From: Candidatus Omnitrophota bacterium
Lineage (GTDB): Bacteria; Omnitrophota; Gorgyraeia; JAFGHF01
Assembly: GCA_020341815.1 (NCBI GenBank)
Contig: CP070837.1
Coordinates: forward strand, 311,035-375,034
Length of the DNA stretch: 64,000 bases
Reading direction: 5' to 3'
The translations under genes and the position numbers were made by a program. Shown piece after piece: positions 4,558 through 39,742 of this stretch; the stretch's first letter is position 1, and every line of letters starts with the position of its first letter. Below the pieces are notes generated by a model. The model saw nothing but the letters and a program-made list of their open reading frames with translations. It did no database searches and was not told where the DNA came from.

Positions 4558-5187
4558 ATGGCGGAGAAAAAATCACAAAAAAAAGCAGAAGAGACGAAAC
4601 AGGCCCGCCTAAAGACTGGCGGACAGGCCCGCCCGCCCTCGGCTTCGCCGAGAGGCGAGACGGCGAGGCAGGAAGAGCTGAAACAGCCGGAATTAATAGA
4701 AAAAGTAGTTGCTGTTAATCGCACTGCAAAAGTAGTTAAGGGTGGCCGGCGTTTCGCATTTAGCGCTTTGGTAGTGGTGGGGGATGCTTGCGGTAATCTG
4801 GGTTATGGCTTCGGCAAGGCGCGTGAAGTGGCTGAGGCCATTCGTAAAGGTTTAAATGCAGCCAAGAAACATATGTTTAAGGTTTCCTTAAAAGATACCA
4901 CCATTATTCATGAAATTGAAGGAAAGTTTAGCGCGGCAAGAGTTATTTTAAAGCCCGCCTCAAAAGGAACAGGGGTAATTGCCGGCGGGGCGGTGAGAGC
5001 GGTATGTGAAGCCGCGGGAATTAAGGATATATTAACTAAAAGTATTCGTTCCGATAATCCTATCAATGTAGCCAGGGCCGCTATCGAAGGTCTGCTTAGT
5101 CTGAAAACTGAAAAAACTCAAAGTCAAACTTTCATAGATGAGTCTGAGGCTGAGGCCGAAGAAGAGGCAACTGATGCGACTCAATGA
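4558..5187 (+). CDS. rpsE: 30S ribosomal protein S5, with a basic N-terminal and an acidic C-terminal extension
   Basis: Core [27 protein letters not shown] is S5. The 209 aa length is longer than a typical S5. Confidence 0.9.
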
Positions 5188-7607: not shown

Positions 7608-8353
7608 TAAAGGTTAAGAGTGCCGAAGAGATTGAGCTGATCAGGCGTGCCTGTGGGGTGGTAAGTGAGGTTATTAAACAGCTCAAGGTTTATGTACGAA
7701 CAGGCATTTCTACAAAACAACTGGATGAGCTGGCCAAGAAGTTGTTGAGGGAACTCGGAGCAACTTCGGCCTTTAAAGGATATCGGGGATACCCCGCTAA
7801 TATTTGCACCTCGGTTAATGAACAGGTTGTTCATGGTATTCCCGGCAGCCGCCGGCTCAAAGAAGGCGACATAATAAGCATAGACGTGGGGGCAAAGTTA
7901 AAGGGATATTTCGGAGATGCGGCCTGCACCTGGCCCGTAGGAAGGATTTCGCAAAAGGCCGATAAGCTTTTGTCTGTTGGCCGCGGCGCCCTGGCTGCAG
8001 GTATTGCTCAGGCTTGCGAAGGCAATCATCTTTTGGATATTTCCAGCCACATCCAATCCTATGTCGAATCTTCGGGGTGTTCGGTAGTGCGTAAGTTTGT
8101 AGGGCACGGGATCGGTTCTCAAATGCATGAAGAGCCGGAGATACCCAATTTCGGAAAAGCCGGGCTTGGGCCCCTTTTGAAGGCCGGAATGGTGCTGGCA
8201 ATTGAGCCTATGGTCAATGAAGGCACCTTCGAAGTCGAGATTTTGAAAGACAAGTGGACGGCAGTAACTAAAGACAGAAAACTTTCTGCGCATTTTGAAC
8301 ACACTGTCTGCGTAACTAAAGATAAACCGGAAGTTCTAACTGCCTGGGAGTAG
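7604..8353 (+). CDS. map: Methionine aminopeptidase type I
   Basis: 249 aa with MAP metal-ligand motifs (...[15 protein letters not shown]..., ...HGIG...). Conserved position after adk. Confidence 0.92.
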
Positions 8354-10176: not shown

Positions 10177-11160
10177 ATGGGAGTTAAATGGAGAAATTTT
10201 GAAATGCCGAAGAGATTGGAATGTGATGAGTCCACATATTCTGATTCTTATGCCAAATTTATTGCGGAGCCTTTTGAACGAGGATATGGCATTACTGTCG
10301 GCAACTCTTTGCGAAGGATATTGATTTCTTCCATAGAGGGTAGTGCCGTCACTTCTGTTAAGATTGAAGGGGTATTGCACGAATTTTCCAGTATTCCCGG
10401 AGTTGTCGAAGATGTCCCTGAGATTATCTTAAATATCAAAAGGCTCATCTTGCGCGCACACACTAAAAACCCTAAGACCATTTTTATTAAAATAGAAAAG
10501 AAGGGAGACGTCAAGGCCCGGGATATCATTACGGATGAGACCGTTGAGGTCATCAATCCCGATTTGCACATCGCTACGCTTTCTAAAAATACGAAGTTTT
10601 ATGTGGAGATGGAAGTGGGGCGCGGCAGGGGTTATGTCTCTGCGGAAAAAAACAAAAAAGAATCCCATGCTCTGGGAGTCATACCTGTAGACTCGATATT
10701 TTCACCGGTAACAAGAGTAAATTTCCATGTGGAAAACACCCGCGTAGGGCAGATGACCGATTATGAGCGGCTTATTCTGGAGGTCTGGACCAATAAAAGC
10801 ATGAACCCTAAAGACAGTCTGCTTTATGCCTCTAACATACTGCAGAAACACCTGGAGGTATTTGTCGGCTTCGGTCAGTTGCCCGAAGAAGAGGTAGCCG
10901 AAGAAAGCGAAGAGGATCAGGAGCTCTATGAAAAATTAAGGCAGCCTATTTCCGAGCTTGAGCTTTCGGTAAGAAGCGTCAATTGCCTGGAGGAGGCAAA
11001 AATCAAGACTATCGGAGACCTGGTGCAGAAGACAGAGATGGAAATGCTCAAATACAGAAACTTTGGCAAAAAGTCTTTAACCGAGATCAACAATATTCTT
11101 AAATCGTTATCTTTGTCTTTAGGGATGAAAGTAGACACAAAGAGATTGAAGAAAAAATAA
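10177..11160 (+). CDS. rpoA: DNA-directed RNA polymerase alpha subunit
   Basis: 327 aa with NSLRRILISSIEG... and a C-terminal alphaCTD (ELSVRSVNCLEEAKIKTIGDL). Confidence 0.95.
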   Translation: MGVKWRNFEMPKRLECDESTYSDSYAKFIAEPFERGYGITVGNSLRRILISSIEGSAVTSVKIEGVLHEFSSIPGVVEDVPEIILNIKRLILRAHTKNPKTIFIKIEKKGDVKARDIITDETVEVINPDLHIATLSKNTKFYVEMEVGRGRGYVSAEKNKKESHALGVIPVDSIFSPVTRVNFHVENTRVGQMTDYERLILEVWTNKSMNPKDSLLYASNILQKHLEVFVGFGQLPEEEVAEESEEDQELYEKLRQPISELELSVRSVNCLEEAKIKTIGDLVQKTEMEMLKYRNFGKKSLTEINNILKSLSLSLGMKVDTKRLKKK

Positions 11161-11164
11161 GGAG

Positions 11165-11250
11165 ACACTGAAACCACTGAAAAATAATCACTGAAACCAC
11201 TGAAGTTTTTCTTTCAGTCTTCTCAGTGATAATTTCAGTCTTCTCAGTGA
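11165..11250. repeat. Family-1 repeat element, copy B: two direct CACTGAAACCACTGAA units, a T-run, then two inverted TTTCAGTCTTCTCAGTGAT units. Sits between rpoA and rplQ.
   Basis: Direct reading. Same unit as copies A, C and D. Confidence 0.75.
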
Positions 11251-11258
11251 TTACAAAA

Positions 11259-11786
11259 ATGCGCCATCGAAAATTTTCTAAAAGACGCATCAGTCGCAAA
11301 TATGGGCATCGCCGCTCTACATTGCGCAATCTGGTAATCAATCTTTTAAAATATCAAAAAATCAAGACTACGCCCGCTAAGGCACGTCTTGCGCAGTCTT
11401 CATTTGAACATTTGGTCTCTTTAGCCAAAAAAGACACGCTTCATTCGCGCAGACAGGCCTATAAACTGCTGGATAACAGGGCTGCGGTCTTGGAGCTCTT
11501 TTCACGAATCACTCCTTTATTTAAGGGGAAGACTTCAGGCTTTACCCGAATAATTCGCACCTCTTACAGGCACGGAGACGGCGCGCAATTAGTCTTTCTG
11601 GAACTTACAAATAAGTTGCCTAAGGTAAAGCCCCGCAAAGCTCCGCATGAGAAACCTAAGGCGGAAGTTAAAGAAAAGGAAGAGATAAAACCTAAAGAAA
11701 AGCTCAGGGCCCCTAAGAAATTGAAGCCGAAGAAATTTTTAGGAGGCTTACGCCGGCTATTTAAAAAGGAAAGAGATGCTCTGTGA
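11259..11786 (+). CDS. rplQ: 50S ribosomal protein L17 with a Lys/Pro-rich C-terminal extension of about 60 aa. The track ORF begins at 11226; I prefer the ATG at 11259.
   Basis: MRHRKFSKRRISRKYGHRRSTLRNL... canonical L17 start. Tail KVKPRKAPHEKPKAEVKEKEEIKPKEK... Confidence 0.88.
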   Translation: MRHRKFSKRRISRKYGHRRSTLRNLVINLLKYQKIKTTPAKARLAQSSFEHLVSLAKKDTLHSRRQAYKLLDNRAAVLELFSRITPLFKGKTSGFTRIIRTSYRHGDGAQLVFLELTNKLPKVKPRKAPHEKPKAEVKEKEEIKPKEKLRAPKKLKPKKFLGGLRRLFKKERDAL

Positions 11787-11901
11787 ACCCAGCCCTTCCA
11801 AATACCACGCCTTGCTATAATAGCTATGGATAAAAGCAATAGATAAAAGGAAGGATGGGGATAAAGGCTTGACATTATCAAGAAAGGAAGGGCTGGGTGA
11901 A
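11784..11901 (+). promoter_or_regulatory. Family-3 element, diverged copy 1. Runs from the rplQ stop codon TGA to the GTG start of the downstream aminotransferase. Closed by the inverted repeat ACCCAGCCCTTCC / GGAAGGGCTGGGT. Contains TGCTATAAT (extended -10-like) and TTGACA.
   Basis: Aligns end-to-end with 29353-29469 and 31021-31137. Shows a compensatory C>A / G>T change in the terminal stem relative to the other copies. Confidence 0.6.
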
Positions 11902-29350: not shown

Positions 29351-29352
29351 AA

Positions 29353-29469
29353 TGAACCCCGCCCTTCCAAACATCACGCTTTGCATAATAGATATAGGCA
29401 AAGATAATAAAAGAAAGGGCGGAATAAAATTTAACCTTGGCCTTACGAAGAAAGGAAGGGCGGGGTGAA
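29353..29469 (+). promoter_or_regulatory. Family-3 element, copy 2. Runs from TGA just after the upstream stop to the GTG start of the downstream gene. Inverted repeat ACCCCGCCCTTCC / GGAAGGGCGGGGT.
   Basis: About 98% identical to 31021-31137. Ends AAGAAAGGAAGGGCGGGGTGAA, where the GTG is the start of ORF 29465. Confidence 0.7.
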
Positions 29470-31017: not shown

Positions 31018-31020
31018 GGG

Positions 31021-31137
31021 TGAACCCCGCCCTTCCAAATATCACGCTTTGCATAATAGATATAGGCAAAGATAATAAAAGAAAGGGCGGAATAAAATTT
31101 AACCTTGGCCTTACGAAGAAAGGAAGGGCGGGGTGAA
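31021..31137 (+). promoter_or_regulatory. Family-3 element, copy 3 (near-identical to copy 2). Runs from TGA after the aroQ stop to the GTG start of pepP.
   Basis: Direct alignment to 29353-29469. Ends GGAAGGGCGGGGTGAA with the GTG at 31133. Confidence 0.7.
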
Positions 31138-33206: not shown

Positions 33207-34562
33207 ATGTTTTCTAAAGTCCTGATTGCCAATCGGGGAGAGATTGCTTTAAGGATTATCCGCGCCTGCAAAGAAATGGGCGTGCGCACCGTAGCGGTCT
33301 ACTCCCAGCCCGATGTTAATTCTCTACACGTGCGTCTGGCGGATGAGGCCATCTGTATCGGCCGCGCCGCGCCGGCTGAGAGCTATCTGAGCATCCCCAG
33401 CATTATCAGCGCAGCCGAGATTGCCGATGTGGAAGCCATCCATCCCGGTTATGGCTTTCTGGCGGAAAATGCCCACTTTGCGGAAATCTGCGCTTCCTGT
33501 AACATCAATTTCATCGGGCCAAAGCCTGAGCCGATGAGGTTAATGGGCGATAAGCTGCAGGCGAAGGCCACTATGCGCAAGGCCGGAATACCGGTTGTGC
33601 CCGGCAGCACAGAAGCGGTGCAGGACAAAGACAAGGCCATAAAGATTGCCCAGCGGCTTAAATATCCGGTGATTATTAAGGCCGCAGCCGGAGGCGGCGG
33701 CAAAGGAATGCGCGTATGCCATAACGATGTGCGCCTGGTCAGCGCCCTGCTTACAGCCCAGGCGGAGGCAGAGGCAGCTTTCGGCAAGCCGGAGGTCTAC
33801 ATAGAGAAATATTTTTCCCGGCCGCGCCATATAGAGTTTCAAATCCTGGCGGATAACTTTGGGCGCATAATTCATTTAGGGGAAAGGGACTGCACTATCC
33901 AAAGACGCCATCAGAAGCTAATCGAAGAATCGCCCTCTATGGCTATCAATGCTAAACTGCGCAAACGTATGGGGGAGGCCGCCATCAAGGCCGCCAAGTC
34001 CGTCAATTACAATAGCGCAGGCACCATAGAATTTCTTCTTGATGAAAAAAACAATTTTTATTTTTTGGAAATGAATACGCGTATTCAGGTTGAGCACGGC
34101 GTTACCGAAATGGTTACGGGCGTAGACCTGCTCAAAGAGCAAATCAGGATTGCCGCGGGAGAGAAATTACGCCTTAACCAGGACGATGTCAAAATAAAAG
34201 GATGGGCAATGGAGTGCCGCATCAACGCCGAAGACCCCAACAACAACTTCACGCCTTCCCCTGGAAGGATCACCTCCTACAATGTCCCGGGCGGACCGGG
34301 GGTGCGCGTTGACAGCTGCGTATATCAGAATTATAATATCCTGCCTTATTATGATTCCCTGATTGCCAAGCTGATTGCGCACGGCAAAACAAGGAATGAG
34401 GCCATCCGGATTATGCTGCGGGCGCTTGAGGAATACGTAATCGAACCGGTAAAGACGACTCTGCCTTTTTGCAGAGACGTATTGAACGACGCGCGCTTCT
34501 TGAGAGGCAAGGTTTATACAGATTTTACGGATATCTTGATTTCCGAAAAACAAAAAGAGTAA
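33207..34562 (+). CDS. accC: Biotin carboxylase
   Basis: 451 aa ATP-grasp with [21 protein letters not shown]-terminus. Immediately downstream of accB. Confidence 0.95.
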
Positions 34563-34626
34563 CACTGAGGACACTGAAAGAAAAATTTCAGTGGTTTCAG
34601 TGTAACAATTTCAGTGATTTCAGTGA
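34562..34626. repeat. Family-1 repeat element, copy C: one direct ACACTGAGGACACTGAAAG unit, an A/T spacer, then two inverted units (TCAGTGGTTTCAGTG and TCAGTGATTTCAGTGA). Begins at the accC stop codon.
   Basis: Direct reading. Same CACTGA(A/G)-based unit as copies A, B and D. Confidence 0.7.
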
Positions 34627-34642
34627 TAAAAGGGAGGTAAAA

Positions 34643-37773: not shown

Positions 37774-38395
37774 GTTATATGTAATTTTAGATGTTGATAT
37801 CGCTGCCTCATGCGGCAAAATAGAGGAAATAGCCCATAATGTTCTTTCCGCAGGAGCCGATATCCTGCAGTTAAGGGCAAAAGGTAAAAGCGATAGTGAG
37901 GTTTTGAAAATAGGCCGTTCTTTAGGAAATTTAGCCCGTAAAGAAAAGGCCTTATTTATCCTTAATGACCGTGTAGAGCTGGTAGATACTATCAATGCTG
38001 ATGGAGTGCATCTGGGTCAGGAGGATGCACCCTTCAGTGAGGCGCGCAGGGCCTTAGGCCCTAAAAGAATAATCGGTATCTCCACCCACAGCGTAGAAGA
38101 GGCGCACGAGGCAGAAAGACAAGGGGTAGATTATATCGCTATCGGACCGATATTTTCCACACAGACAAAACCGCAAAGTACTCCTCTGGGGCCTGAAATA
38201 ATTACAGAGATTAAGGACAAAGTTAAAATCCCTTTTCTGGCTGTGGGGGGCATAAATCTGGAAAACTCAAACCAAGTTTTAACCTGTGGCGCTCGGCGCA
38301 TTGCCGTCTGCAGGGCTATCATTAAAGCAAAGGACGTCTTTGGAACTACGGAGAAATTCAAACAAAGGCTAAACAACCCTACTTACACCTCGTAG
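37760..38395 (+). CDS. thiE: Thiamine-phosphate synthase (TTG start inferred)
   Basis: LYVILD...ADILQLRAKG...GVHLGQED...IGIS.H...GVDYIAIGPIF.T.TK, the TMP-TENI pattern. Confidence 0.82.
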   Translation: MRDFRLYVILDVDIAASCGKIEEIAHNVLSAGADILQLRAKGKSDSEVLKIGRSLGNLARKEKALFILNDRVELVDTINADGVHLGQEDAPFSEARRALGPKRIIGISTHSVEEAHEAERQGVDYIAIGPIFSTQTKPQSTPLGPEIITEIKDKVKIPFLAVGGINLENSNQVLTCGARRIAVCRAIIKAKDVFGTTEKFKQRLNNPTYTS

Positions 38396-38431
38396 GTGTA
38401 AGTAACGAAGCGTGGATTGTGCGCTTAAATT

Positions 38432-39742
38432 TTGAAACGGAATGTACAGATGACCCAACTGGAACAGGCAAAAAAGAATAGAATAACTCCTCAAATGAAA
38501 AAGGTGGCTCGTAATGAAGGGGTTAGTTTTGAGTTTATTCGCGAGAAGCTTGCTGAGGGAAAAATAGTCATCCCTTACAATAAAATCCATAGCCCCAAGA
38601 GGCCTTGCGGCATAGGGGAGGGCTTAACCACAAAAGTCAACGCCAATATCGGCACTTCCAGTGACTATTCAAAGATAAACGAGGAACTGAAGAAAACGAA
38701 GATATCGGTCTTGGCCGGGGCCCATACCGTTATGGACCTAAGCACAGGGGGGAATATTTCTCAGGTGCGCAGAGCTATTTTACGAAATTGTCCTGTGCCT
38801 TTGGGGACCGTGCCTATCTATCAGTCCGCAATCAATGCAGTAAAAAATAACGGCTCCATTGCCGGAATGAGCGAAAACGACATCTTTGCAACCATCGAAG
38901 AACAGGCTAAAGACGGGGTGGACTTTTTCACTCTGCACTGCGGGGTAACGCTTGAGTCCGTTGCCCGCTTAAAGAATCAAGAAAGAATTACCGATGTGGT
39001 CAGCCGGGGCGGAGCCATTTTGATAGAATGGATGTCAAAGAATAAAAAAGAAAACCCCTTATATGAACATTTCGATCGGGTTTTGGATATTGTCAAGAAA
39101 TATGATGTGACCATAAGTCTGGGGGACGGCATGCGCCCGGGCTCAATAGCCGATGCCACCGACAGAACCCAGATTCAGGAATTAATTTTATTAGGAGAGT
39201 TGGCCGAGCGCTGCCGAAAAAAGGGCGTGCAGGTAATGATTGAGGGGCCCGGACACATGCCCCTGAATCAGATTCAAGCCAATGTCTTATTGCAGAAAAG
39301 GCTCTGCCACGGCGCTCCTTTCTATGTATTGGGGCCTTTAGTAACGGATAGCGCTCCCGGCTATGACCATATCACCGCTGCTATCGGCGGGGCCCAGGCC
39401 GCTTCTTACGGAGCCGACTTTCTCTGTTACGTAACTCGTTCGGAACATCTGAGGCTGCCTACGCTTGAAGATGTACGCGAAGGAGTAATCACTACGCGTA
39501 TCGCTGCCCATGCAGCCGATATCGCCAAAGGAATAAAAAAGGCCATAGACCATGATGCAAAAATATCAACTGCGCGCAGAAAAAGGAACTGGAGAAAACA
39601 GATAGAGCTGGCCATTGACCGTGAACGTCCCGGCAAGATGCGCCGGAAGTTTAAGTCATCGACCAAGGATGTCTGCACTATGTGCAGTGAATATTGCTCC
39701 ATGAAATTAATGGATTCGGCAAAAAGGGAGTTAAAGAAATGA
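38432..39742 (+). CDS. thiC: Phosphomethylpyrimidine synthase
   Basis: 436 aa radical-SAM-type ThiC with C-terminal CTMCSEYCSM cluster motif. TVMDLSTGG and EGPGHMP motifs. Confidence 0.92.
   Translation: MKRNVQMTQLEQAKKNRITPQMKKVARNEGVSFEFIREKLAEGKIVIPYNKIHSPKRPCGIGEGLTTKVNANIGTSSDYSKINEELKKTKISVLAGAHTVMDLSTGGNISQVRRAILRNCPVPLGTVPIYQSAINAVKNNGSIAGMSENDIFATIEEQAKDGVDFFTLHCGVTLESVARLKNQERITDVVSRGGAILIEWMSKNKKENPLYEHFDRVLDIVKKYDVTISLGDGMRPGSIADATDRTQIQELILLGELAERCRKKGVQVMIEGPGHMPLNQIQANVLLQKRLCHGAPFYVLGPLVTDSAPGYDHITAAIGGAQAASYGADFLCYVTRSEHLRLPTLEDVREGVITTRIAAHAADIAKGIKKAIDHDAKISTARRKRNWRKQIELAIDRERPGKMRRKFKSSTKDVCTMCSEYCSMKLMDSAKRELKK

Follow-up and report, generated by a model that had tools for sequence, protein, structure and literature searches.

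A MIRU-like family of probable MITEs inserted into start codons in Candidatus Omnitrophota

The window analyzed here is a stretch of 64,000 nucleotides from contig CP070837.1 of a Candidatus Omnitrophota bacterium (assembly GCA_020341815.1). Between rplQ and an aminotransferase gene it carries a 118-nt unit on the + strand (copy 1, 11784-11901) with the layout TGAA-CCCAGCCCTTCC ... GGAAGGGCTGGG-TGAA. The 5' terminal inverted repeat CCCAGCCCTTCC occupies 11788-11799, and the 3' terminal inverted repeat GGAAGGGCTGGG, which includes the Shine-Dalgarno-like GGAAGG, occupies 11886-11897. Extended by A11787 and T11898, respectively, they form the 13-nt arms ACCCAGCCCTTCC (11787-11799) and GGAAGGGCTGGGT (11886-11898), which pair as a perfect 13-bp helix. 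Between the arms lie TGCTATAAT, an extended -10-like motif with no matching -35 upstream (11813-11821), a G-rich internal segment, GGAAGGATGGGG (11849-11860), that imperfectly repeats the 3' arm and has a counterpart in all subfamilies, and a TTGACA hexamer (11869-11874) that is followed by no -10 and is probably incidental. The termini, the interior TGCTATAAT and the TTGACA had all been described in a first-pass annotation of this DNA, and all of these statements hold.

The unit is framed by two start codons. The native aminotransferase GTG (11783-11785), in overlap with the rplQ stop TGA (11784-11786), stands at its 5' edge and is now the start of a mini-ORF of 16 codons, VNPALPNTTPCYNSYG, that runs through the 5' arm to a TAA stop (11783-11833). 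A new GTG (11897-11899) at the 3' edge opens the 388-aa aminotransferase ORF, which is 100% identical to protein P0121. The earlier observation that the rplQ stop and the aminotransferase GTG stand at the two ends of the element is thereby confirmed. Upstream (11226-11262 of the window), the mechanical ORF call for rplQ (GTG 11226) begins inside a CACTGAA repeat insertion; the gene of a relative and the alignment place the real rplQ start at the ATG of ATGCGCCATCG, near 11259.

Two more copies are present in the window, both on the + strand. At copy 2 (29352-29469), which has C-G arms, the order is native ATG, TGAA, element, TGAA, and the downstream LPG_synthase_TM gene now starts at GTG 29465; its mini-ORF has 38 codons and ends at a TGA overlapping that GTG. 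Copy 3 (31020-31137) lies between aroQ and a pepP-like gene, with the new GTG at 31133. From TGAA to TGAA (29353-29469 and 31021-31137) these two copies are 99% identical to each other and share the arms ACCCCGCCCTTCC / GGAAGGGCGGGGT; their identity to copy 1 is 61% when aligned without gaps and 73% when gaps are allowed. All three copies lie between co-directional genes, start with [A/G]TGAACCC and end with GGGTGAA, and the next ORF begins at the final GTG of each. Since copies 2 and 3 carry ACCCCGCCCTTCC / GGAAGGGCGGGGT, the C>A change of copy 1 (A at 11791) and its G>T change (T at 11894) fall on paired positions; this matched substitution with an intact 13-bp helix, the central observation of the first-pass annotation, is reproduced against both copies.

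The pepP-like and aminotransferase proteins of the window are 100% identical to proteins of an Omnitrophota MAG at NCBI. The next relatives, at 90% and 95% amino acid identity, are contigs L025 and L029, both of one Logan sample. Each aligns collinearly with the window (91-94% DNA identity), with breaks only at short insertions. All three sites are empty in these contigs, and each empty junction is a single N-TGAA. At site 1, L029 reads ...GATGCTCTGTGAAAATAGCCC, with the rplQ TGA overlapping the aminotransferase GTG, and the aminotransferase is called there from the native GTG (CTGTGAAAATAGCC). Site 2 reads ATAAGATGAAAAAAAAT in L025 (8440-8455; with flank ...GGCATAAGATGAAAAAAAATAAATT) and site 3, in the same contig, GCGCTTAAGGGTGAATACTGCGG. 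Farther outgroups are empty as well, L030 at site 1 and L026 and L027 at site 3. Alignment of the window with the empty sites marks the insertions as clean segments of 114, 113 and 113 nt (sites 1, 2 and 3), the second TGAA included: at site 1 there is one TGAA in the empty L029 and L030 and two in the window (11784-11787 and 11898-11901). Overall, 33 kb of the 93%-identical relative contain no copy and the 64 kb of the window contain three. Five more short insertions (~65-130 nt) relative to L025/L029 are found at 1650-1781, 4604-4668, 11160-11254, 34559-34628 and 38363-38446 of the window. They belong to other hairpin repeat families, including CACTGAA/TTCAGTG heptad hairpins, TAGTATCTAGTCG hairpins and a G+C-rich palindrome, and it seems that several small repeat families have expanded in this genome in a burst.

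Filled and empty sites together show that the element inserts at a TGAA within the start codon (NTG^AA), flanked by a 4-nt direct repeat, and that the native start is kept at its 5' edge. The 3' repeat supplies GGAAGG 6-11 nt before the new GTG, as well as the final G of the element. This G and the TG of the right TGAA rebuild a start codon, so that the protein sequence is unchanged and the gene now starts with GTG; at site 2, an ATG before insertion has become a GTG after it. The two TGAA copies also provide the 13th base pair of the closing stem. That the rplQ stop and the GTG start coincide with the ends of the element is a consequence of TGAA having been duplicated at a GTGA stop/start overlap.

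Because site 1 is empty in a close relative (95% identity in the aminotransferase, ~93% in DNA), copy 1 is a recent insertion that came from a source lineage other than that of copies 2 and 3. The first-pass annotation had argued that copy 1 is not a decaying relic, which is borne out, and that its loop had diverged in place while selection preserved the helix, which is not supported. The same rplQ/aminotransferase GTGAA has also been entered by a different copy in L032/L033, which has C-G arms, 130 nt between the two starts and an unrelated interior, next to an aminotransferase 71% identical to that of the window. The aminotransferase proteins group as ((window, L029 95%), (L030, L032 80%)); L029 and L030 are both empty, and two independent insertions at site 1 are therefore the simplest history. 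In L034, the relative with the independent insertion at site 1, the ribosomal-protein operon harbors its own, different palindromic repeats between genes (8202-8317 and 2649-2728), with the motifs CACAGATTAG / ATCTGTGAT.

When copies at one locus are compared between genomes, each proves closer to its genome-mates than to its counterpart: L009a shares 89% identity with L006 and 71% with L002, and L003 is 86% identical to L004 and 65% to the same-locus copy L007. One further pair of a filled (L009b) and an empty (L002) site does not represent a simple insertion, as ~100 nt of native leader are missing in the filled genome. In this pair (L009 2860-3075 against L002 475-710, - strand), the empty genome retains a leader of ~100 nt with GGAGG-N9-GTG, and at the filled site the element directly follows a TTTGTGATATATTTT box common to L009 and L002. 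In L026 (82-96), the start of a distant pepP homologue, ATGAACCCCATAGCA, mimics the 5' junction of the element, ATGAACCCC, probably by coincidence.

Two pattern scans that left four to six stem positions free found the family in MAGs of Candidatus Omnitrophota (L001-L010), to which all MAG matches belong, and in a few metagenomes (L011-L024). Three metagenome matches (L014, L016 and L018), with 8/13 complementary positions, were judged to be chance and dropped. After de-duplication there are ~20 distinct full-length copies from five MAGs and several metagenomes, at least six of them in MAG DBS2-5.bin57, and all read [A/G]TGAACCC ... GGGTGAA. Around a core of ~110 nt, the termini are perfect 12-bp inverted repeats in most copies (CCCNGCCCTTCC ... 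GGAAGGGCNGGG), and the interior is poorly conserved between genomes, at ~50% identity. A tandem array of three short ~52-nt units, each made of a 5' arm, a 24-nt loop and a 3' arm, is present in L023 (2050-2208); its neighboring units share a single TGAA, their 5' arms are mismatched variants, and the array resembles MIRU-type tandem repeats. A 22-copy nhmmer profile and a fuzzy arm search found no further and no reverse-oriented copies in the window and the fetched loci, including 21 kb around L032. All copies have one orientation; both search patterns favored it, so that constancy of orientation is weakly tested, and the copy in L032 and the extra L023 copies are free of this bias. Neither aroQ nor the 38-aa mini-ORF had an exact match in the assembly index.

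All 26 units have TGAA on both flanks. The terminal GTG begins an ORF at each of the 16 sites that allow the check; these ORFs are 43-499 aa long, the shortest being the one after the L023 array. The downstream genes are unrelated and encode the aminotransferase, pepP, ackA-like (acetate kinase), pdxJ-like, exonuclease, PFOR-gamma-like and membrane proteins. The 5' NTG is mostly ATG and in a few copies GTG; it follows the stop of the upstream gene by 1-2 nt or overlaps it in 8 of the first 14 copies, and some of the 5' ATGs have a good native Shine-Dalgarno sequence, e.g., L011 GAGGAGaaaaacATG and L017 AAGGAGaaatATG. The sites lie in housekeeping operons (ribosomal protein genes, aroQ-pepP-efp clusters), into which the hairpin alone has been inserted. 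In the window there are 15 NTGAA starts, three of them occupied, 53 non-coding TGAA and nine TGA-A stops. Many TGAA thus lie outside starts, yet every copy sits at a start, and TGAA alone is insufficient to account for the location. Among the targets as reconstructed before insertion (16 sites, from the window and L001-L023), TA is found at +7/+8 in nine of 16, as compared to two of 12 unoccupied NTGAA starts of the window, and there is a tendency to A at -3/-2; both may belong to an extended target preference.

In 9 of 22 distinct copies, copies 2 and 3 of the window among them, the mini-ORF stays open as far as the GTGA overlap; in the other 13, including copy 1, it stops early. The other forward frames are open in one and in no copy (five if the built-in 5' TGA is ignored), and the longest internal ORF of the inserted segment has 38 codons. 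A coding role as an N-terminal extension of the downstream gene was rejected, because the distance from NTG to GTG falls in all three frames. Several known kinds of signal were also set aside. The motif TGCTATAAT lies upstream of TTGACA and the pair therefore makes no + strand sigma-70 promoter, and a promoter scan found no + strand site in copy 1. Copies 2 and 3 (29380-29408 and 31048-31076) contain a weak promoter-like TTTGCA-17-GATAAT on the + strand (9/12 matches), which does not exceed shuffle expectation and is absent as a conserved site from copy 1. The element is no intrinsic terminator, since its stem closes a loop of ~86 nt and is followed by GAAAAT with no T run, and a terminator scan reported none at the element. 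An integron attC site (RYYYAAC / GTTRRRY) does not agree with ends that read [A/G]TGAAC ... GGGTGAA or with positions in housekeeping operons. Rfam returned no match, either at the gathering score for the whole window or at E<=1 around the element. A cis-regulatory leader RNA (riboswitch, thermometer or attenuator) is disfavored by the unrelated downstream genes and the absence from the closest relative at three loci.

A 13-bp inverted repeat in three copies cannot be chance. It is the predicted closing helix of all three copies, on both strands, folded as RNA or as DNA, and also in the context of a 221-nt transcript; fold z-scores of the three window copies range from -3.9 to -5.4, and no shuffle folds as well. 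In an alignment of 18 distinct arm pairs, pairing holds in 96.6% of cells, and the observed covariation was reached by one of 500 shuffles. The position of the matched substitution, pair 9-32, is A-U in nine arm pairs, C-G in five and unpaired in four. One further double change, U-A to C-G, occurs at pair 14-27 (L023d, CCCCTCC / GGAGGGG). Only these two of the 13 pairs show a double change and five pairs are invariant, so the covariation is real but thin. Five G-U wobbles occur across the 18 arm pairs, and in mRNA sense five transitions preserve pairing and one breaks it (counted by hand), which is a weak hint at most.

At pair 9-32, arms are A-T in L007, L008, L017, L019, L020 and L023 and C-G in L002, L006, L009, L010, L015, L022 and L032, with hybrid arms in L001, L023b and L023c, and both states are present in the window/L032-type and the bin57-type interiors, which are ~50% identical. 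The C-G / A-T difference is a marker of element lineages that coexist in several genomes, and copy 1 comes from the A-T lineage. The first-pass annotation had held that its reading would be undermined if the two arm variants went back to separate master copies with inverted termini, and this is nearly what was found: both variants are widespread as separate lineages. Its claim of selection on pairing survives in part. The arms do change in concert, but matched arms are to be expected of the inverted termini of a transposable element, so the covariation is no pointer to an RNA function in the host. Judged from the sequences, two matched protein sites and a hairpin would account equally well for the paired ends. 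As a caution for similar cases, matched substitutions in the closing stem of a repeat are not in themselves evidence of a functional RNA.

We conclude, with a probability of roughly 80%, that we are dealing with a MITE-type, non-autonomous mobile element, MIRU-like in its mode, that inserts into start codons in a clade of Candidatus Omnitrophota. The reading closest to the first-pass annotation, a cis-regulatory RNA of the host in which the 5' arm acts as an anti-Shine-Dalgarno sequence sequestering the ribosome-binding site, the internal G-rich segment serves as an alternative partner and pairing is under selection, appears very improbable to us. It would draw on the predicted helix, which hides the Shine-Dalgarno sequence and the GTG in every copy, on the internal copy of the 3' arm, which tracks the A/C variant in L007 and L008 and in window copy 1, and on the excess of G-U wobbles over pairing-breaking transitions among single changes in mRNA sense. 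Against it stand the empty sites at all three loci of the 93%-identical relative, downstream genes of unrelated function, an interior only about half conserved between genomes, the lack of an Rfam match even at E<=1 and covariation at only 2 of 13 pairs. Arms that are identical between same-locus copies of different genomes while interiors and flanks diverge might be taken for selection in place, an argument that we withdrew because these copies are closer to their genome-mates and site 1 was hit twice; the pattern fits re-insertion or turnover and not conservation in place. A different objection is that the matched C>A / G>T carries no information on selection, having arisen once or spread by recombination or repair between the arms, and only marks two master lineages. 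That only a single position toggles commonly, that hybrid arms exist, and that the bin57-type C-G copies are 85-90% identical to each other and 79-84% to A-T copies all agree with this. However, both states occur in two deeply separated interior types, so that either the polymorphism is old or double changes have recurred. L023d shows another, independent double change, and pairing exceeds that of 499 of the 500 shuffles. We regard this account as rather unlikely.

A second doubt concerns how the element moves. It could be a single-stranded DNA hairpin mobilized by an HUH/Y1-type enzyme (IS200/IS605- or RAYT-like) that inserts 3' of TGAA; TGAA would then be the end of the element and not a true duplication. 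The fixed orientation, the seamless empty sites and a selection for pairing would follow, and such a mechanism is in keeping with the TGAA flank of 26 of 26 units, always in the same orientation relative to an asymmetric tetranucleotide, with the single TGAA shared by tandem units in L023 and with the predicted stability of the DNA hairpin. In known IS200/IS605 elements, however, each end has a subterminal hairpin of its own and terminal inverted repeats are lacking, whereas the two termini here pair with each other; the evidence on orientation is biased by the search patterns, and a DDE transposase with a preference for TGAA targets fits equally. In the ~340 kb of fetched DNA we saw no Y1 transposase; neither a transposase nor a full-length element carrying these termini came to light there, and there were no arm pairs at a spacing of 0.3-3 kb. 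Mobilization as an HUH/Y1 hairpin is on balance unlikely.

For the start-codon-inserting MITE, the following sequence of events at the mRNA level may be proposed. The G+C-rich 13-bp helix is predicted to hide the new Shine-Dalgarno sequence and GTG. Translation of the mini-ORF (MNPALP...), of which codons 2-6 are the 5' arm, would come either from initiation at the native codon or from ribosomes finishing an overlapping upstream gene, as at rplQ; it would melt the helix and let ribosomes pass to the new GTG. Where the mini-ORF stops at the TGA of GTGA, the -4 overlap could set up termination-reinitiation at the new start. The mini-ORF of copy 1 ends after 16 codons, so coupling at this copy, if any, would be by unmasking only. 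By analogy with what has been proposed for mycobacterial MIRUs, such coupling may leave the insertion nearly neutral, and the arms would stay complementary because transposition needs matched ends. A stronger version, in which the element homes actively to translation starts (for example through a transposase that recognizes targets like its own SD-spacer-GTGAA end), perhaps doubles as a host device enforcing translational coupling and represents a start-codon-homing transposon independent of MIRUs, strikes us as doubtful. The MITE reading suggests how a parasitic repeat can colonize a compact genome (~93% coding density) without killing genes, namely by entry at the start codon, a throw-away mini-ORF and a new ribosome-binding site. 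If the coupling is true, the strategy proposed for MIRUs would have been invented twice, independently, and the element would be a source of natural 'bicistronic design' parts. For annotation, the insertions explain a class of GTG starts behind a strong hairpin in Omnitrophota MAGs.

By its structure the element qualifies as a MITE: it is short (113-114 nt), has no transposase gene, carries terminal inverted repeats and a TGAA repeat that is single at empty sites, exists as dispersed copies, and differs in presence between relatives (three copies in the window, none in L025/L029). The Neisseria Correia elements, RUP and Nezha are MITEs of ~100-150 nt that likewise lack a transposase gene and have terminal inverted repeats and a short specific target duplication; they occur in many copies, vary in presence between relatives, form long RNA hairpins and are co-transcribed with their neighbors (PMC3184786, PMC10969869). 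The Omnitrophota element shares their size class, inverted termini, target repeat and copy differences between relatives. Unlike it, however, they insert in intergenic DNA generally (Correia at TA) (PMC3184786, PMC10969869), and none has been described as entering start codons and rebuilding the start with a Shine-Dalgarno sequence in its own repeat. Start-codon insertion is not mentioned in a 2024 review of prokaryotic MITEs, and our literature search on Omnitrophota repeats found no report.

Other small repeats are less similar. Neisseria REP2, compared alongside the Borrelia IR repeats, differs in having no terminal inverted repeats and in carrying a promoter, and no start-codon target duplication has been described for it (PMC3184786); no conserved promoter is evident in the Omnitrophota element. 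Rickettsia palindromic elements are mobile palindromic repeats with an open frame that makes their insertion tolerated at the level of translation (PMC10969869). The Omnitrophota element is also a palindromic mobile repeat that would be tolerated at that level, but whereas the Rickettsia elements insert in frame within coding sequences and join the protein (PMC10969869), it stays outside and restarts translation. Of the features of IS200/IS605 and REP/REPIN systems, the fixed TGAA and the seamless empty sites fit and the mutually pairing termini do not.

The functionally closest case is that of the mycobacterial MIRUs (Supply et al. 1997, as reviewed), intra-operon repeats of 40-100 bp that lie in gene orientation and are described as mobile (PMC12548453, PMC3184786). 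They are described as entering start codons, where filled sites carry direct repeats of a tetranucleotide and relatives have empty sites, and their internal ORF is coupled to the downstream gene at -4 nt, which is thought to minimize the effect on expression; they also have G+C-rich dyad symmetry and form tandem arrays (PMC12548453, PMC3184786). In the Omnitrophota element we find start-codon insertion in gene orientation at all 16 checkable sites, the TGAA repeats, the GTGA overlap in 9 of 22 copies and the tandem array in L023. Unlike MIRUs, it ends in perfect inverted repeats of 12 bp, which pair with each other over the full unit and are predicted to hide the new Shine-Dalgarno sequence and start; it replaces the first base of the start codon to give GTG, and most of its copies are single and not in tandem. 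The phylum differs too, and the likeness is one of analogy and not of membership. Taken together, this is a MIRU-like, start-codon-inserting MITE family in Omnitrophota, of a kind that is already known and in a variant that is new.
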